Notes under the pieces: model-generated
Databases searched by the model: none
The model's input: only the letters and a program-made list of their open reading frames with translations
Told to the model about the DNA's origin: nothing
From: a virus
Direction: 5' to 3' (one strand)
DNA length: 64,000 nt
Virus record (IMG/VR): IMGVR_UViG_3300045974_000283
Span: 64,001-128,000 of that record
Position numbers and translations under genes: made by a program
Part shown: one piece after another, positions 20,483-32,075 of the stretch
How positions within the stretch are numbered: position 1 is the stretch's first letter
Layout of the letters: every line of letters starts with the position of its first letter

Positions 20483-21196
20483 TCAGCGCGCCGACAACGC
20501 GGACCGGGAGAAGTAGATCTTCGACGGTTTCATCAAGAGCTTGCCCATACAGAAGGTGATCGGGTCCTCGCCCGAAGCCACGACGACACGCGGAACACCT
20601 TCGTAGGTGTCGAGCAGGTCGCGAACGTGCTCCAGCCGATACGGCGACATCGTCGCGTAGACACCGGTGAGCACGAGCATCGAGGCTGGCGTATCATTCT
20701 CGATCATCGAGGCGGTGATGGCTCGGTTCTTCAAGTGGTGCCACAGGACGCGGGCATTCGGGTTCCGCTTCAGGTGCTGCACCACGAGGTAGACCGCAAA
20801 ATACCGGGATTCGAGGTCGTCAAACTCGCCGGACACGAAGTAGAGCTGAGGGCTGACCGGGTCCTCGATGAAGTTCTTCAGCCCGGCTGTCTGAGAGCCA
20901 TCACTGATGAGCATCTGCTTGAACTGAGGCAGCTTGGCATCGTCACCCGCACGGCCGATCTCGAAAGGCTGAGGGTTGAACTTGAAGGCAGGGTGGCGGC
21001 GAACAGCGCCGGGTATTGCAACCCCACGAGAGTCGATCAGGTTCCAGTCCTTCGTGGTTATCTCGATCTTCAGGGTATCGTCTTCATCATCGTCGACCAC
21101 GATGCGTCGACCGCGACGACCGGCCTTGGGCTCGGCTTCAGCGTTGTCGTCAGCTTCGCGCGTGTGCCGAGTTTCGGTGGCTTCTTCTTGGCTCAT
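20483..21196 (-). CDS. Degenerate DnaC/IstB-like P-loop protein (putative helicase loader)
   Basis: Layout LYFVSG....SRYFA / MLVLTGV / DLLDTY...PRVVVAS parallels DnaC/IstB, but Walker A GKT and Walker B DD are missing. Close to dnaB. Confidence 0.45.
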   Translation of the reverse strand: MSQEEATETRHTREADDNAEAEPKAGRRGRRIVVDDDEDDTLKIEITTKDWNLIDSRGVAIPGAVRRHPAFKFNPQPFEIGRAGDDAKLPQFKQMLISDGSQTAGLKNFIEDPVSPQLYFVSGEFDDLESRYFAVYLVVQHLKRNPNARVLWHHLKNRAITASMIENDTPASMLVLTGVYATMSPYRLEHVRDLLDTYEGVPRVVVASGEDPITFCMGKLLMKPSKIYFSRSALSAR

Positions 21197-24173: not shown

Positions 24174-25338
24174 CGGACTCTTCCGTGTCTACGGTGTCAC
24201 CGGTCATGTCGGCCTGAAGCAGAGCGATGTAGCCGATAGCTCCCGATATACGAAGCGTTGAGAAGTCGTTGATGACATCAAACACCAGATGCGGGGCCGT
24301 CGCTTTGGACGTTGTCTGCTTGGCGACAGCGGTCGAGAGGAAAGTAAAGTCAATTGAGAACTCCTTGGCGTTGCCCGTCTTGGGCAGCATGAGGGAAGTG
24401 GAACCCGAGTTGGACTCGACGGTGAGCCGGGTAGACTCCTTGGGGCCGGGCTTGAAGCGAGCTGAGGCACCCTCAGAGGCCAGCGAGCGGCTATTCTCCA
24501 TGAACGCCTTGATGGTCTCGAAGCTGACCGACAGACTGTGCTCGGGCTTCGCCGCTGCGGACTCGCGAAGCATGGAGAAGACGTCGTCGGCGGACAGCGC
24601 CTCGCTCAGCATCGGCAGGGTTTTCCGGAGGCGGAATTTCTCAGCGGTGGCAACGAAGAACTCACCATCGACGTAGCACTTCGCGTTCGCCTCGGGAAGC
24701 CCCTTGACCAGAGAGAGGAACTCCATGTAAGGAAGTTCCAAGCGAACGGTCGGTAGAGGCGGCTCGCTTGCCTCACCTTTGGACTGGTGCTCCCGCTTGT
24801 AGCAGAGCTGGAGGCGGTCGAAGCAAGCCACGAACCGCGAGGTCGATGTGATGTCGACAAGAAGCTGAGGGTCGGACAGAGTTGAGTGCAGCTTGGTGAC
24901 GCTGACCATCGGTATGACCGTCTGGAGCCACTTCTGCAGAGGCGCTGTCAGGGTGAACGCCTTGACGTCTTCGCCTTCCGGCTTGAGAATCTTGGCTGGA
25001 GGTTCCGCCTCTGCGACGGGCATCGTAGCCGTGTAGCTGCCGGAACGAATCTTCAGCTGTTGCTCGCTGAGGCTTAGGGTGCCGGACTTGCGGCCCTTGA
25101 TGGCGGACTGCAAGGAAGACACGGCCACGGATACGGCGGAGTCGCCGTCGAGTCCTAGGTTGATGCCGTCCAGAACACACGACACCTCCGCGCCGGGTAC
25201 GACGGCTGAGAGCAGAGTGCGGTCGCCGTGGGCGGAGAAGATGACCTTCTCAACGGAGCCGCAAACGGCGATGATGATCTTCAAGGAGATCTCCAGAGAG
25301 GAGATATCGCTTGGTGGCTCGGGAGTTTTCTTGTTCAT
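24166..25338 (-). CDS. Putative DNA sliding clamp (Pol III beta-like), 390 aa
   Basis: Size and repeated helix/strand pattern resemble the three-domain beta clamp (e.g. SVAVSSLQSAIKG...LSLSEQQLKIRSGSYTATMP). Lies in the replication block. No diagnostic catalytic motif exists, so confidence is moderate. Confidence 0.5.
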   Translation of the reverse strand: MNKKTPEPPSDISSLEISLKIIIAVCGSVEKVIFSAHGDRTLLSAVVPGAEVSCVLDGINLGLDGDSAVSVAVSSLQSAIKGRKSGTLSLSEQQLKIRSGSYTATMPVAEAEPPAKILKPEGEDVKAFTLTAPLQKWLQTVIPMVSVTKLHSTLSDPQLLVDITSTSRFVACFDRLQLCYKREHQSKGEASEPPLPTVRLELPYMEFLSLVKGLPEANAKCYVDGEFFVATAEKFRLRKTLPMLSEALSADDVFSMLRESAAAKPEHSLSVSFETIKAFMENSRSLASEGASARFKPGPKESTRLTVESNSGSTSLMLPKTGNAKEFSIDFTFLSTAVAKQTTSKATAPHLVFDVINDFSTLRISGAIGYIALLQADMTGDTVDTEESDD

Positions 25339-27680
25339 ACGGTTGACCTTCTGGGTGCAGGCGCATTAACAGGGAGTGGCTGATACTTCGCGGGGCGTGA
25401 GCCAGTCTCGGCGCGTAGGGTGTTGACACGTTTCAAGGTCGCGTTGAATTCCTTGACCTGTTCGGAGGACAGTGTGGATTGCTTGGACATCTTCATGAGA
25501 CGTTCACTAAGTCGTTTGATGTCTTTGAACCTTGGGTCGGCGGCGCGTTCAGCGCGGAGCCGTCGCATGCGTTCGGCTGTAGTTTCCCGATTGGAGTCCT
25601 TCTGCCGGAGTTTCCGGTGTTGTTCTACCTCAGCTCTGGCGGCGGCCTTCTTCGCGATCTGTTCAGCTTTCTGAGAACTGGTGAAGTTGGTTTCGTCTCC
25701 GGACTCTCCCATGAAGGCGTTCCATGTGGAAGGCCATACGAATCGAGGTTCGTGTTCCATACCCGGAACTTCTCCTGGATCCCCCATAACGGTGGGTCGG
25801 CCGCCGAAGGCAGTCTTCAGGTGTTCCGCAGTGAAGACATCAGGCACGATGACGATCACTCTGTTTGTCGACCTGATGTCTCGTATGGAGGTGCGAGCCA
25901 CTGATTGGGCGCAGGCCGAGATCAGCATATCTTTGCTGATGTCAAAGGGGACGGCGGACTTCTTGACGTAGGGTATGTGAGCGGTCCTGGAGTTGAAGTA
26001 CTCCTTGATGAAGCTCGCCATCAACGGAGTGGGATTCAACGCCGAAAGGAACGTGATAGCGTTGTAACCCTTGAACTCGTTGAGCCCGTGGCTGTAAGAA
26101 CTGATCTCTTGAAATTTGCTGGATACTGGAGCAAGGTCCATTGTCTCGGCCTCGTAGTATCTCCAGTGAACGCCATCCATCCACGCTTTGCCTTTCTCCT
26201 TGCCTCGGGTCGCAGCTGCGTAACCTTCTTTCGGCTGGTTGAAAACCAGAAGGGACAGCTTATCTGTTTCGCCCGAAGTCTTTAGTCGCCAGTTCTCATC
26301 AGAGATGTTGGTGAAACGGTGGAGGATCTCTCCAGCAGTCTGAATGAACCAGGATAGGGGGCGGGTGTGAAGCTGATCAGGATTCGAAGGCGTCGTGTTC
26401 ACCTGTGTGGTTCTTGCGAGTTCGACAAACTTGTCGAGGTATTGTGTGTATGCCTTCGAAATATTCTTTGGGCGACGCGAGGAATTGGCGAACCCCGTTC
26501 TGGCGTAGGCTTCCAAGTCACCGAGGGTGTTGCGGTCTATCTTGAAGGTCTTTCCACGAGCGATACCCTTGAGCTTGTCGAAGGCCGAGAGACTGATCAA
26601 CACGCCCCGTTCCATTCTGGTGCGGCTCAATGGTTTCTCTTCCTGGGTCAAAGGGATGATATACATTTCATCAAGACGATCCTTCAGACGTTGCGCACGA
26701 GGCGAGCTTTTCATCTGCTGTCGTAGCTCGGGGTCACTACCGTCAAGCAAGTTGACCATGCGAACACGCGAGTCGCGGTTCAGGAGGTAGAACATTTGCG
26801 ACTCTTCGATCCATGCTGAGGCCAGCACGACACGGCGATACCCGAAGAACATATCCATCGGAACGGTGACGTGAACCAAGTCGGACAGTATATCAGGCGT
26901 TGGATTTTGTAAATTGTCTTTACTCATTCTCATGTAGACATGGGCACGGGCCGACCAAGACGCCTCGACCAGTCGGATTAGTGCTGCTCGGCTCAGGCGA
27001 GTGCGGCCTGCTGACTGGAAGCGGATCGACTTGTCCTTAAACATGGCATCGATGCGTTCGGGAGCTTCGTTCAAGGCTCGAACGCGAGCAAACCCCTTGG
27101 CGTCCGGAGCTAGGGCCGGATCTAGAAACTGCGCATCGGTTCCAAAGATATTTACGACCTGCTCGCTGGTCAAGGCGATGTTTGACGGTTCCATGGCGCA
27201 GGCCCGCATCTCGTCGAAGTAGACAGAGACATCCGAGGTCCACTGCTGACCAGATGGAAGGTGAGAAAAGGCTTCGTGGGTGATCAGAACGACCGAGCCC
27301 GGCTTCAAGGCGGGCAAACCCTCCTCGTCGGTTCCAGGCCGGGGCTTGGCTCCAAGCGCAATAGATATCTCACGATTCATCGTGACCTTGCGAAGGGTGT
27401 TCCTGGCCTCGTCGGTGATCGCGTAGATGTAGTCGTCAGCCTCTTGCTCGGTGAACAGACCAGCGGCTGTGGACTTCTCTCTGAGCGAATCGTGAACTTG
27501 ATTCAGCAGTCTGTAGGTTGGAGCGCAGAAGATAGTGACGCGAGTCTTCCTAGCATCTTCGTCTTCGTTGGCGTGATATGCCTCAAGCCAGCGCAGTATG
27601 GAGATCTCGATCCAGTGTGTCTTACCGGAACCGGGTAGAACCGATAGGTAGTGAATGACGGTTTCGGGTAGGCGTTTCAT
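25335..27680 (-). CDS. Large SF2-type P-loop helicase, candidate origin-binding/initiator protein
   Basis: Walker A LPGSGKT, motif Ia FCAPTYRL, ITHEAF, Walker B VYFDE. Basic C-terminal helix TTAERMRRLRAER. Alternative TTG start at 27734. Abuts the AT-rich palindromic region. Confidence 0.65.
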   Translation of the reverse strand: MKRLPETVIHYLSVLPGSGKTHWIEISILRWLEAYHANEDEDARKTRVTIFCAPTYRLLNQVHDSLREKSTAAGLFTEQEADDYIYAITDEARNTLRKVTMNREISIALGAKPRPGTDEEGLPALKPGSVVLITHEAFSHLPSGQQWTSDVSVYFDEMRACAMEPSNIALTSEQVVNIFGTDAQFLDPALAPDAKGFARVRALNEAPERIDAMFKDKSIRFQSAGRTRLSRAALIRLVEASWSARAHVYMRMSKDNLQNPTPDILSDLVHVTVPMDMFFGYRRVVLASAWIEESQMFYLLNRDSRVRMVNLLDGSDPELRQQMKSSPRAQRLKDRLDEMYIIPLTQEEKPLSRTRMERGVLISLSAFDKLKGIARGKTFKIDRNTLGDLEAYARTGFANSSRRPKNISKAYTQYLDKFVELARTTQVNTTPSNPDQLHTRPLSWFIQTAGEILHRFTNISDENWRLKTSGETDKLSLLVFNQPKEGYAAATRGKEKGKAWMDGVHWRYYEAETMDLAPVSSKFQEISSYSHGLNEFKGYNAITFLSALNPTPLMASFIKEYFNSRTAHIPYVKKSAVPFDISKDMLISACAQSVARTSIRDIRSTNRVIVIVPDVFTAEHLKTAFGGRPTVMGDPGEVPGMEHEPRFVWPSTWNAFMGESGDETNFTSSQKAEQIAKKAAARAEVEQHRKLRQKDSNRETTAERMRRLRAERAADPRFKDIKRLSERLMKMSKQSTLSSEQVKEFNATLKRVNTLRAETGSRPAKYQPLPVNAPAPRRSTV

Positions 27681-27719
27681 GGAGGTTTGAGGTTTGTGTT
27701 GCGGCCTATAAACATGGGG

Positions 27720-27965
27720 AGCGTGTTTGCGCAATTAACAAGTCGCGCTGGACAAACACGGTTGAATACCCAAAAGAAGTGTTTGCAGTGGGCATCGCTT
27801 ATTAAAAGTTCAAAACGTGTTTGGCCACCTTCCCCTATATAATATGTTTCTTATAGGGATTACTGGCCAAACACGTTTTCAACGTAGGGGCCGTTATAAC
27901 ACCCATTTGGAAGTATCCCTATACGGGGATTGTTTATAACACCTTTTCAAAATCAATCAAAATTC
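27720..27965. promoter_or_regulatory. Candidate replication origin: AT-rich tract, 16-bp inverted repeat, CAAACAC iterons
   Basis: Perfect IR aaaacgtgtttggcca 27812-27827 / 27864-27879 with inner ccctata/tataggg. CAAACAC/GTGTTTG at 27723, 27753, 27779, 27817, 27868. ttataacacc x2. Located at the strand switch. Confidence 0.55.
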
Positions 27966-28422
27966 TAACGACTGAGTCCCGTCAGGGCTCAGGCGCAATC
28001 ACCTGAGCGTAAGCGAAGGTGATGACGGAACGAATTCCGTATCCACACTCCAGTTGGGATGTGGGATCCTGGAAACCTGAGTATCGTTCATTTCGGCCTG
28101 CGGCCTCATTCACGCGCCTTCGGCCCTTCGGGACCTCAGTTGGAATTAGAAATTCTTTGGAAAGGATAAACCCTTCCCTAAGACAGAAACGATAGATTCC
28201 GCGATGCCAGCGATGTCCGCTGCAAACACTCCTGGATTCCAGGAAAAGATGCCCATTTTTCACCTGTATGGGCAAACCCTGCTAGACGCGGAAAACCCTT
28301 CGTTTTAGACCGTCCAGGAACGAATAGGACGTCTAGTTTGGTCTAACCCGCTGGCCGGAGGCCGAACCTAAACTAAGCCACCGGGCAAATCTGCCAAAAC
28401 CCCAGAAATATAGACAAAACCC

Positions 28423-28451
28423 TTGCGCTGATACTGTTTTGAGCGTATAAT
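28423..28451 (+). promoter_or_regulatory. Sigma70-type early promoter
   Basis: TTGCGC-17 bp-TATAAT with an A-rich upstream element, at the head of the plus-strand arm. Confidence 0.8.
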
Positions 28452-28514
28452 GAGCTCAGGGGGTCGTTTTGTCACGCACCACCCGTAAACTGCCCATTTT
28501 TGGAGCTTTGCACC

Positions 28515-28619
28515 ATGAAACCACGCACTCGCACCCGCTTGCTCGCGATTCTCGGCAACATCGCCGTTCTTGCGATCTTCGCCTTCATCGGCGTTCTCAT
28601 GGGTCTGGGGTTCCACTGA
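28515..28619 (+). CDS. Small single-pass membrane protein, 34 aa (not in the ORF track)
   Basis: MKPRTRTRLLAILGNIAVLAIFAFIGVLMGLGFH. GGAG RBS. TGATG coupling to the next gene. Confidence 0.65.
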   Translation: MKPRTRTRLLAILGNIAVLAIFAFIGVLMGLGFH

Positions 28620-28864
28620 TGAACGCCCCGACCGCCAAAACCGCGTTCCAGTCCACGTCGCCCTGCGGGGTCACCTGGACCAATCAGCGGGTCGCACTCC
28701 AGAAAGACATGGTCTTCGGCGTGTGCGTCCTGTCTGAAGAGGGTTGGAAGCCCCTCGCTTGGCTCAGCCGCGAAGACCTCGAAATGGTCCGCCGCCTGTG
28801 CGACCGTCACGCCGGGAACCCGTTCGCTGCTGATCTCGACCACGCGATCAAGGTGGCAACGTGA
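28619..28864 (+). CDS. Early hypothetical protein, 81 aa
   Basis: Start at MNAPTAK by TGATG overlap. GTGA overlap with the next gene. Confidence 0.65.
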   Translation: MNAPTAKTAFQSTSPCGVTWTNQRVALQKDMVFGVCVLSEEGWKPLAWLSREDLEMVRRLCDRHAGNPFAADLDHAIKVAT

Positions 28865-29067
28865 GCAAGCGGTTCAAGATGACCGCCGCCGAGCGCAAGG
28901 TTTGGAAGGCAGAGAACCCTCGCTATCAACGGCCTCCCGATCAGGTCTGCGCTCACTGCGGCGCTCGGGTTCCCGGCTCTGACCTTGGACTGCTCTCGCA
29001 AGCGATTCAAGGTCACAAGCCTGTCTGTTCATACGAGTGCAACAAGGCACTCGGTCAAGTCGAGTAA
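28861..29067 (+). CDS. Small Zn-binding early protein
   Basis: CAHC...H..VCSYEC, 68 aa. Confidence 0.65.
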   Translation: MSKRFKMTAAERKVWKAENPRYQRPPDQVCAHCGARVPGSDLGLLSQAIQGHKPVCSYECNKALGQVE

Positions 29068-29855: not shown

Positions 29856-30143
29856 ATGGGCTCACGCATTTCCATCCCTCTCGTCAACCTGCTCGGCAAC
29901 CCGGAAGTTCGCGTCGAGCTTCGCACTCTTGCCGATCAGGACGCTCCTACCAATCTCGTCCACGAAGCCGTCATCCACTGGCCGAACAATCACCTGGAGT
30001 GGGTCATGAACTACTCGATCCACGAAGGCAAGATCGAGTTGGAAAGCGACTGCAACCTGATGCGCTACACCGAGGAAGAGCGCTTGGACTTCCTCGGTCC
30101 GCTGTTCCAGAACAGCGTCTCCTTCAACGTCATCGTCGGCTAA
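29856..30143 (+). CDS. Early hypothetical protein, 95 aa
   Basis: AGGAG RBS, typical codon usage. Confidence 0.75.
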   Translation: MGSRISIPLVNLLGNPEVRVELRTLADQDAPTNLVHEAVIHWPNNHLEWVMNYSIHEGKIELESDCNLMRYTEEERLDFLGPLFQNSVSFNVIVG

Positions 30144-30155
30144 GGAGCCCAAACC

Positions 30156-30587
30156 ATGGAAAGCCTTTTCGCCGATCCTCGCATCACTACCGCTGCCAGT
30201 CAGATCGCGTCTATGGTTCTTGGCGGTCCTTGGCCTGTCTACTTCAAGGTTTCGGGCCTGATGGAAAGGGTCATTCAGAAGCCCAAGCCCGTTGCGCCCA
30301 CTGAAGCCGAAATGGAGTTGATGGACCAAGACCCCGACGCCCTCGCCCCGCATGTCGTTTGCGAACGCGATCGTCTCATAAAGACCTTCGCTCGCAACAC
30401 GCGCGACTATCGCCACCTGAAGGAACACTTCATCGCGGCACTGACCGAGGCCCTGCAAGCGAAGTCCGTTCGTGAACTGTGCCCTTGCATCATCTCGCAG
30501 GTCGGCGCTATCCGCGAAGCCCACGACGAGGCCTACGTCGTGCTCCGCGAGCCCGAACAAAGCGAGTGCTACGTTCTGGCCCTGTAA
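30156..30587 (+). CDS. Early hypothetical protein, 143 aa
   Basis: AAGGAG RBS. Confidence 0.75.
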   Translation: MESLFADPRITTAASQIASMVLGGPWPVYFKVSGLMERVIQKPKPVAPTEAEMELMDQDPDALAPHVVCERDRLIKTFARNTRDYRHLKEHFIAALTEALQAKSVRELCPCIISQVGAIREAHDEAYVVLREPEQSECYVLAL

Positions 30588-30599
30588 ATTTCCCCCACG

Positions 30600-30617
30600 G
30601 CCCTTCGGGGCTTTCTT
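30600..30617 (+). terminator. UUCG-loop hairpin with U-rich tail
   Basis: gccc-ttcg-gggc-tttctt in the intergenic gap. Confidence 0.5.
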
Positions 30618-30638
30618 CATCATCACAGAAAGACCATC

Positions 30639-32075
30639 ATGTCCACATCCAAGCCCATGTCGCGTTTCATCCCCAAAGCCCGAGCTGAGGAGGATGCCGT
30701 TGCCAAGGTCTCCGCCAAAATGGAGCGCGAGCGCGTCCGCGCCGAGACCGCTCGCAAACACGCCTACGAATGGGAACTCGCCCGCTTGAAGGCCGATGAA
30801 TCCGTGATTCACTTGATCGAAGCTGTCAACACTCAGGCCAAGCGTTACGTGACGCTTTCCAAAGACAAGCGCGGGCTCCAGGCTTCCGTCCGTAAGACGG
30901 CCTTCATCACGGACATCGTCTTCTGGTGGCCGACTACTGCCCAAAATCGCAAGTCGCATCTGCTGAGCGACTTCACGATCACGCAGGGTCGCCGCATTCT
31001 GGCCGCGTTGACCCACTTCAACGGTGGACGCAAGCAACTCCTCAAGGAAGCTGCCGAGGCGGTCTTCGCTGTCAAGAAAGCCGAACTCGCTAAGAAGCGC
31101 GAGATCGCCGACTCGACTCAGGCTACTGAGCCCGCGAAGCGCAAGTCCGTCAAGATCATCCGTGGCACCCCGAAGGCTCCGGTCATTTCGCATCCGGACG
31201 AGGACGACAACCGCGACGGCGGTGGGATGCCTGCTGCCAAGCCTGCCCCGTTCGTGAACGCCTACGAAGAATCCAAGGCGTTCGTGAAGGAAGCTCTGAA
31301 AGTCATCAGTACTCCGCTTCCCGCAGATAGCCTGCCTCCGGCAGAGGGCAAAACCAAGGATGCCCCACCCAAGAAGTGGAGACACGGCTCTAAAGCTTCC
31401 AAGGAGTTCGTCGACATGGCCGACGCGGCCTTTGCTCGGCTCCGTGACGTGATCCGACCTGAAGACCGAGCGGACACCGACGTGATCGATGACAGCCACG
31501 ATCAGCAGGACGACGATCCGTCTGTTCCGCGCGACCCCTACGCGGAGGCGTTGTATCTCGCGACCCTCGCGAAGCGGCAAGGCAAAGCCCGCGAAACCAA
31601 GTTTGATACCTCGTTGATCCTGTCTCCATCGGAGTTCAGCGACATGGTCGACGAGATCTTCGCTCGGCTCAAGAACCACCGTCGTGATCATCCGGCCTAC
31701 CGATTCGTCACCTTCTTCTACGCCGCCTCGGGTCTCAAGTACGAGCGTTCGTGTGAAGTCGGGCTGCAAGCGCTCCCGCTGGAAGTTGTCGAAGTGACCA
31801 AACGGTACGTCGCGCTCTCGCACCCAGACCTCGACGTTGCGGTTCTGTACGAACGGGCGACCCGCGTCGTTCACATCAGCATCTCTGGAACCATGATGCG
31901 CGTCGAGGCGGGCGACCCGACCTGGAAAACCTTCGCTTCCTGGGAAGGCCCCAATCCGCGCAACGAATGGGTCCTGCTGCTGATCGACGACGGCACAGGA
32001 AAACGCACTTCCGAGCGCACCGTTCCGTGGATCTACACGCAACTCAAGAAGTCCGTTAGCTTCCAACTCTCCTGA
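30639..32075 (+). CDS. Hypothetical protein, 478 aa, with charged low-complexity linkers
   Basis: Long ORF with host-like codon bias. No recognisable motif. Confidence 0.8.
   Translation: MSTSKPMSRFIPKARAEEDAVAKVSAKMERERVRAETARKHAYEWELARLKADESVIHLIEAVNTQAKRYVTLSKDKRGLQASVRKTAFITDIVFWWPTTAQNRKSHLLSDFTITQGRRILAALTHFNGGRKQLLKEAAEAVFAVKKAELAKKREIADSTQATEPAKRKSVKIIRGTPKAPVISHPDEDDNRDGGGMPAAKPAPFVNAYEESKAFVKEALKVISTPLPADSLPPAEGKTKDAPPKKWRHGSKASKEFVDMADAAFARLRDVIRPEDRADTDVIDDSHDQQDDDPSVPRDPYAEALYLATLAKRQGKARETKFDTSLILSPSEFSDMVDEIFARLKNHRRDHPAYRFVTFFYAASGLKYERSCEVGLQALPLEVVEVTKRYVALSHPDLDVAVLYERATRVVHISISGTMMRVEAGDPTWKTFASWEGPNPRNEWVLLLIDDGTGKRTSERTVPWIYTQLKKSVSFQLS

Follow-up and report, generated by a model that had tools for sequence, protein, structure and literature searches.

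The subject of this analysis is a gene and the non-coding DNA next to it in a stretch of 64,000 nucleotides (hereafter the window), which corresponds to positions 64001-128000 of one linear virus contig of 177,837 bp in IMG/VR (record IMGVR_UViG_3300045974_000283). The contig has a GC content of about 59%, and CheckV estimates it to be about 74% complete. A gene map that we built from codon-position GC divides it into two arms: a minus-strand arm, extending from about 28.9 kb of the contig to position 27,734 of the window, and a plus-strand arm, extending from position 28,469 of the window to the end of the contig and covering the first ~28.4 kb of the contig as well. The two arms are separated, at 27.7-28.5 kb of the window (coordinates below are those of the window unless the contig is named), by a gap that is the sole divergent strand switch of the contig. 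This gap contains a cluster of short repeated words around an AT-rich palindrome, and the first gene of the leftward arm, the replication arm, encodes a 781-aa protein resembling the ATPases and helicases of superfamily 2 (SF2). An earlier note, made from the sequence by itself, had taken this pair for a bidirectional origin with a dedicated phage initiator and with genes co-oriented away from it; the gene map bears out this orientation on both sides.

The gene (25335-27680, minus strand) was characterized from its open reading frame (ORF), its translation, a family alignment and a structural model. The product consists of two RecA-like lobes (residues ~1-640) and a basic helical tail (~665-760), and the Walker A motif LPGSGKT, the Walker B motif VYFDE and the basic helical C terminus that had been read from the ORF are all present. 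The ATG at 27680 is the most likely start codon, and the homologue in the nearest relative begins at the equivalent ATG; we preferred this conserved codon to a TTG at 27734, which is probably not the start. A Pfam scan returned DEAD only, at the N terminus and below the cut-off (E 1e-3), and in PHROGs the protein falls into phrog_2467 (E 1e-21) and phrog_31024, both families without an assigned function. An exhaustive HMMER search (E <= 1e-3) identified 222 cluster representatives as homologues. In an alignment of 72 family members, the full set of SF2 motifs I, Ia, II, III and VI is conserved (consensus PGxGKT, YVAPT, FDEARK, SAxFExSQM and QxVxRxSxRD), and residues D156, E157, Q592, R596 and R600 are invariant.

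The single 781-aa sequence found no match among PDB chains; the family profile matched Brr2 and NS3 at motifs I-Ia (E 4e-6). We then compared the AlphaFold (AF2) model, which has a predicted local distance difference test score (pLDDT) of 82 and a predicted template modeling score (pTM) of 0.81, with known structures. Foldseek placed XPD, DinG and DdmD at the top and RIG-I and MDA5 next (E ~5e-7), and VIA-align gave a Z of 10.9 for XPD, with 364 residues aligned at a root-mean-square deviation of 6.3 and with LGP2, DinG and DdmD within 0.2 of this value. Matches to the SF2-helicase fold, at Z 10-11, cover residues 1-640. As in helicases of the XPD/DinG type, the two RecA-like lobes carry large insertions, but the template modeling (TM) score is only ~0.3; RIG-I/MDA5 and DdmD score the same as XPD/DinG, and all that they have in common with our protein is the general SF2 fold. 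The ESM Atlas pointed to YonV-like helicases (Pfam PF27199, YonV_C) as possible look-alikes. Cysteines of the Fe-S cluster of XPD/DinG and Rad3 were not found among the invariant or near-invariant columns of the 72-member alignment. Conserved motifs, the profile match in PDB and the fold thus confirm that the protein is of SF2 type: it is a real but very divergent SF2 ATPase, which resembles SF2 helicases in general and no one subfamily in particular. In the model, the last ~140 residues form basic helices, and this tail has a net positive charge in 72/72 family members (median +13), its sequence not being conserved. The GC content at third codon positions (GC3) of the gene is 0.64, compared with 0.77-0.80 in its neighbors, and local GC falls to 52-55%, which suggests a mosaic origin, the cassette having been acquired or exchanged.

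The repeats upstream of this gene are those that the note had listed. CAAACAC or its complement occurs at 27723, 27753, 27779, 27817, 27868 and 28223. The sixth copy is at the position given but does not group with the other five, as it sits in a separate conserved element and behaves differently. A perfect 16-bp inverted repeat (27812-27827 / 27864-27879) encloses a nested CCCTATA / TATAGGG pair (27833-27839 / 27852-27858) around a 12-bp AT centre, and the ttataacacc repeat (TTATAACACC) is found twice, at 27894 and 27934. The larger inverted repeat extends to 32-nt arms that are 81% complementary (27808-27839 / 27852-27883). The heptamers and the TTATAACACC repeats have a common core word, WAACAC, of which there are seven copies in the 280 bp from 27681 to 27960, where 0.06 would be expected from the rest of the contig; the cluster is far beyond chance. 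Contig-wide word counts agree with its being unique to the locus: 6 of the 13 copies of CAAACAC in the 177.8-kb contig fall within 27723-28229, all 3 copies of CCCTATA at 27833-27923, and both copies of TTATAACACC here. Moreover, the 200 bp with the lowest GC of the contig start at 27772 (38%, against the overall ~59%), and no perfect short-range inverted repeat of the contig is longer than the 16-bp palindrome, which is equalled by one other, a terminator-like hairpin where the arms converge. Folded as single-stranded DNA, 27715-27960 gives a z of -4.3. The spot with the second-lowest GC of the contig lies within a gene and was rejected as a rival gap.

Going outward from the gene, the first elements are an inverted word pair, CGTGTTTG at 27722-27729 and CAAACACG at 27753-27760, located 43-80 bp upstream of the ATG. 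This pair overlaps a tentative leftward promoter that we read by eye and that is weak (-35 at 27734-27729, 3/6; -10 at 27710-27705, 4/6), and it is a possible autoregulatory operator. A third copy of the word (27779-27785, minus strand) belongs to a long-range inverted repeat described below, within its left arm. It is followed by the core palindrome with its word-bearing arms (27808-27883), whose AT centre (27840-27851) contains TATAAT; this palindrome is a candidate unwinding element between two inverted candidate binding sites. Finally, the two copies of TTATAACACC, carrying the word variant TAACAC (27894-27943, plus strand), flank a small hairpin at 27915-27930. We found no cluster of DnaA boxes: there is a single 8/9 match in the gap, and the window holds 7 in total against 5.5 expected. 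The palindrome (27808-27883, minus strand) also matched Rfam mir-H11, at E 0.42 and 24 bits against a cut-off of 70 bits, which we read as a coincidence of hairpin shape; mir-H11 is a microRNA precursor family derived from the OriL palindrome of herpes simplex virus (HSV), and the match was not used as homology.

A tie between gene and word comes from the nearest relative, which carries a homologue (P0002, on contigs L001, L002 and L003) that is 68% identical, with synteny on both sides. Between the two phages, identity is 90-97% for the neighboring replication proteins. The values are 96.9% for a clamp-like protein, 96.5% for a 171-aa protein, 95.6% for a second helicase, 93.8% for DnaB and 95.1% for the terminase, against 68.1% for the SF2-like protein. 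At the nucleotide level, identity to L001 is 0.89-0.99 up to 25350 and 0.59-0.77 across 25500-27950; it is back at ~0.9 from 27945 in one alignment, and MAFFT bins show the rise from 28050. The cassette of low identity (about 60-75%) is exactly the SF2-like gene plus the word-bearing DNA, and the sequence flanking it left and right is 89-93% identical. Within the protein, identity is lowest, at 23-30%, in residues 661-705, which are the first basic C-terminal helix.

In L001 the gap retains a palindrome with perfect 26-nt arms, an identical 26-bp centre and a TTATAAC module, which lies on the opposite side of the palindrome from that of the window and carries TAACGG. The word itself has changed: the homologous 300 bp of L001/L002 contain five WAACGG (0.18 expected) and no WAACAC, as compared with seven WAACAC and one WAACGG in the window, and the arms of the palindrome bear the changed word around the unchanged centre. 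A concerted change of 5-7 dispersed sites requires a trans-acting reader whose specificity has changed as well. We infer that this reader is the SF2-like protein, the sole protein encoded in the cassette.

The arrangement of gene and gap recurs in distant relatives. The palindrome might have proved not to be conserved beside homologues in related phages, a check that the earlier note had named as able to refute its proposal; we found that distant homologues adjoin long gaps with inverted words and palindromes of their own, and the check did not refute the proposal. The upstream context could be read in nine relatives, and in 9/9 of them a divergent non-coding gap of 514-1319 bp immediately precedes the homologue: 866 bp in L001, 536 bp upstream of ORF295 of phiRSL1, at about 204.4-205.0 kb, 567 bp upstream of gp194 of BcepSaruman, 803 bp in PhiXhv-15, 555 bp in Motura, 865 bp in L007, 615 bp in L008, 514 bp in L022 and 1319 bp in L023. 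In another contig, L009, the 565 bp upstream of the homologue hold no called gene. The genes on the opposite side of the gap vary (endonuclease, small ORFs, head protein, tail fibre), and in most relatives the homologue heads the replisome cluster.

We assessed word enrichment in 11 gaps by shuffle tests on exact 8-mers. The gaps usually hold a lineage-specific word of their own, mostly in mixed orientation and near the gene. In PhiXhv-15, 7 of the 11 genome copies of TAGAAATC lie in the gap, including a palindrome with 21-nt arms. All three genome copies of GGTACATAAACC in phiRSL1 are at the gap, two of them forming a palindrome with 22-nt arms; its design is that of the window, with a nested inverted repeat around an AT centre of 16 bp. 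The gap of L008 contains a perfect 15-bp inverted word adjoining an AT-rich stretch, and those of BcepSaruman, L007, L009 and Motura contain weaker, three-copy words. The sequence of the gap is not conserved beyond L001/L002, since an nhmmer search with the whole gap gave no match to the loci of distant relatives. A protein-based scan of IMG/VR, and one with a 20-mer from the conserved block to the right of the palindrome, found no relatives. Separately, the gene-distal halves of the gaps of three distant relatives (L008:5520-5700, L009:185-315 and L021:3930-4135) share a word, AGCGAAGC, and its complement, located in loops or arms of mutually complementary hairpins; it represents a second conserved element, consisting either of DNA sites or of kissing RNA loops.

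Based on these observations, of which the concerted switch of the word, the sharp bounds of the low-identity cassette and the position beside word-bearing gaps throughout the family weigh most, we propose that 25335-27945 is a replicon-specificity cassette, comprising an SF2-fold DNA-binding initiator and its cognate origin site, a reading predicted from sequence to which we give a probability of roughly one half. In this model the protein would recognize WAACAC, probably via its basic, fast-evolving C-terminal helices, and would occupy the seven sites. The two inverted sites in the arms of the palindrome would bracket the most AT-rich DNA of the contig, where ATP-dependent distortion would open the duplex; the DnaB-type helicase and the replisome of the phage, whose genes follow directly downstream, would be loaded there and synthesize DNA in both directions. 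Reading of the word, melting at the AT centre, loading of DnaB and the start of replication at this place are thus the inferred steps. In addition, by binding the inverted pair that lies 40-80 bp ahead of its start codon, the protein would repress its own promoter. Autorepression via sites on the own promoter is common among plasmid initiators.

Several known systems resemble parts of this arrangement. In iteron origins (lambda O/ori, plasmid Rep/iterons, SaPI Rep/ori), the gene likewise abuts a repeated word with an AT-rich element adjoining, and here too an inverted pair lies on the tentative promoter of the putative initiator and the word and the putative initiator co-vary between relatives. 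The locus thus has three features of iteron origins, namely a locus-unique word array, an AT-rich element and co-variation of word and gene. Unlike in those systems, the fold is SF2 rather than a winged-helix Rep, lambda O or an SF3 helicase, the words stand in mixed orientation around a palindrome rather than in a direct array, and there is no cluster of DnaA boxes.

The note had likened the protein to UL9 of herpesviruses. UL9 binds two inverted boxes around an AT-rich spacer, and the origin lies between divergent genes (PMC12543377). Like UL9 of HSV-1 with OriS/OriL, the locus combines a protein that has an SF2 ATPase core followed by a C-terminal region (the part that reads DNA in UL9 and would do so here) with a palindrome in which inverted boxes bracket an AT-rich centre between divergent genes. 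The likeness holds for the SF2 fold and not for family kinship, as the Pfam family Herpes_ori_bp (PF02399) had no match in the contig at E 10. UL9, the herpesvirus origin-binding protein (OBP), was absent among the 50 best structural matches, in fold searches that barely covered the tail (residues 640-781). In contrast to UL9, this tail consists of basic helices without an RVKNL-type motif; instead of three boxes, the DNA carries a 6-mer word seven times, and the replisome is DnaB-based.

A phage parallel is D2 of T5, a UL9-like SF2 helicase that has been proposed to be an initiator (PMC3632103). Like the 781-aa protein, D2 is a phage SF2 helicase inside a block of replication genes, and its initiator role was proposed on indirect grounds. 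Unlike the 781-aa family, which has neither, D2 has a Herpes_ori_bp domain and a predicted helix-turn-helix (HTH), and no cognate site array is described for it in PMC3632103. True homologues are found in the family phrog_2467, including ORF295 of phiRSL1 and gp194 of BcepSaruman (annotated as "DEAD type helicase"), each of which likewise heads an arm behind a long gap. In tblastn they are 21-26% identical over 80% of the length, and the protein of the window is longer, with a larger tail. Neither phrog_2467 nor ORF295 of phiRSL1 has an assigned function in the libraries and records that we searched, and in the literature searched we found no paper naming an origin or an initiator for jumbo phages of the phiRSL1, Saruman or Motura type.

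A number of observations weigh against the proposal of an initiator with its origin. The note had suggested cumulative GC skew as a check. The cumulative G-C curve indeed has its maximum at 27-28 kb, so that the expected inflection is there, but it lends no support to an origin: the peak coincides with the only strand switch, which makes the effects of transcription and replication inseparable, and its polarity is reversed. In both arms C prevails over G on the sense strand, which would be the leading strand (about -0.1 overall); the second and third codon positions have skews of -0.15 to -0.28, and the asymmetry extends to intergenic DNA (plus strand, +0.11 / -0.12). A bacterial origin has G in excess on the leading strand, and by that rule the switch resembles a terminus. 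The skew therefore gives no weight to an origin and slight weight against one. With the contig about 74% complete, another origin could lie in the missing part. As for the protein, library and PDB searches recognized no sequence-specific DNA-binding domain in it, and sequence-specific binding of double-stranded DNA is rare among SF2 proteins. In the relatives L022 and L023 (2/11 gaps), no significant exact 8-mer repeat was detected. Finally, the co-variation of gene and word indicates a functional tie and does not prove an origin, because a gene that is exchanged along with its promoter and operator co-diverges with them in the same way.

This last point leads to the most serious alternative, that the region serves the control of early transcription only; we hold it to be a possible explanation, though less probable than the one proposed. 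The words would then be operators on divergent early promoters, one leftward for the SF2-like gene and one rightward in the AT centre, read by the SF2-like or another early protein; the SF2-like protein would have another role, in replication, recombination or restart, and replication would begin at an origin at some other place or depend on recombination. Such control fits the word pair at 27722-27760, which overlaps the plausible promoter of the SF2-like gene, and the perfect TATAAT in the centre of the palindrome, in 26 bp that are identical in L001. It also fits the position at the sole divergent switch, the expected place of early promoters, and a skew polarity unlike that of a bacterial-type origin. 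However, seven sites over 220 bp, two of them around the most AT-rich DNA of 178 kb, exceed what operators need, and the neighboring genes yielded no regulator, whether of the HTH type or another. Most relatives have the gene at the head of the replisome cluster, and the contig has a DnaB-type helicase with no other recognizable origin-recognition protein. In any case, operator function and initiation at an origin are not mutually exclusive.

It is also conceivable, but improbable, that the reader of the words is a host protein or a small early phage protein of the right arm, and that the SF2-like protein is a generic helicase that happens to be encoded nearby. The early genes of the right arm (28.5-33.2 kb) diverge too, being 49-72% identical to those of the relative or absent from it, and one of them could co-vary with the word; this explanation also does without a DNA-reading domain in the SF2-like protein, where none has been identified. 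Against it, DNA of ~89% identity (27945-28500) bounds the low-identity block, so that the SF2-like gene alone is contiguous with the changed words, and the adjacency of gene and gap is kept in 9/9 contexts, in which the genes across the gap differ. A host factor, moreover, does not explain a different word in each phage. We consider it highly improbable that the site serves for packaging (pac/cos) or partition or is a genome end. In favor of this, the site is unique, repeat-rich and AT-rich, and the genes for the terminase large subunit and portal are ~10-14 kb to its left. Against it, the terminase genes do not adjoin the site, no ParA/ParB-like genes were seen nearby, and what the relatives conserve is a place beside the SF2-like gene rather than beside packaging genes.

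To the right of the site cluster, between it and an early rightward promoter, lies a conserved and strongly structured non-coding block (27945-28420, plus strand). Its identity to L001 is ~89%, against 60-75% for the adjoining gene and repeats; we rejected the description of 27945-28515 as "ultra-conserved", as ~89% is like that of the well-conserved genes around it. Indels of 1 nt relative to L001 exclude that 27945-28420 is coding. The RNA fold z is -5.6 on the plus strand and -4.0 on the minus strand, the plus strand also agrees with several G-U pairs and with GC-to-GU changes, and one stem is altered in both halves (GCC/GGC to GGAC/GTCC). The block matched no family of Rfam; it may be an RNA made from the palindrome region. 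Matches of the 20-mer at 28002-28021 to metagenome and genome contigs (10 loci) were dismissed as coincidence, identity extending over 20-29 nt only; they are apparent 23S rRNA segments, as judged from their flanks, and unrelated coding DNA. We also noted a long-range inverted repeat (27775-27799 / 28209-28233; 25 nt, 88% complementary, 409 nt apart) that encloses the palindrome and half of the conserved block and is retained in L001. It is a separate element, because its CAAACA core does not follow the switch from AACAC to AACGG.

The block is followed by a sigma-70-like promoter (28423-28451, plus strand; TTGCGC, a 17-nt spacer and TATAAT), which we recognized by reading and which is conserved in L001, although it is missing from the list of a stricter consensus scan. 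It is probably the promoter of the rightward early genes, the first of which starts with an ATG at 28515, preceded by GGAG. Small uncharacterized genes come first in this arm, with homologues of GyrB and GyrA further on. A 734-aa ORF on the minus strand at 29862-32066 is an antisense artefact, as judged from codon-position GC and from its weaker conservation compared with the plus-strand genes; the plus-strand ORFs at 29856-30143, 30156-30587 and 30639-32075 have the normal order GC3>GC1>GC2 and are better conserved in L001.

In the leftward arm, the 781-aa gene is followed by genes for the clamp-like protein (390 aa, with a weak match to phrog_947), the second SF2 helicase (ResIII + Helicase_C), a 237-aa protein (20483-21196, minus strand) and, within the replication block, the DnaB-type helicase. 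The 237-aa protein matches phrog_20094, annotated as "DNA polymerase" (E 1e-14), and had no Pfam match. The terminase and portal genes lie beyond the replication block. DnaA, a lambda-O-type protein and DnaG_N had no match in the contig, which represents about 74% of the genome. Where the two arms converge, at 28831-28867 of the contig, an inverted repeat that is perfect over 16 bp surrounds a 5-nt loop and is flanked by A/T runs; it looks like a bidirectional terminator.

In a broader and much more speculative version of the proposal, which we think unlikely, the phiRSL1-type jumbo phages and their uncultured relatives would possess a hitherto unrecognized family of SF2 origin-binding initiators convergent with UL9. 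The words peculiar to each lineage would prevent cross-activation during co-infection, and 27945-28420 would be an RNA transcribed from the central promoter of the palindrome, serving as a primer or forming an R-loop. If the SF2 family does act as an initiator, these phages would gain a mapped origin, and phrog_2467, a conserved gene without annotation, would be explained. SF2 origin-binding proteins would then be known from two independent cases, UL9 of herpesviruses being the other, and the natural swap of specificity between AACAC and AACGG would make the protein-DNA code directly testable. Four cultured phages, phiRSL1, BcepSaruman, Motura and PhiXhv-15, have the same layout, and the idea can thus be tested at the bench.

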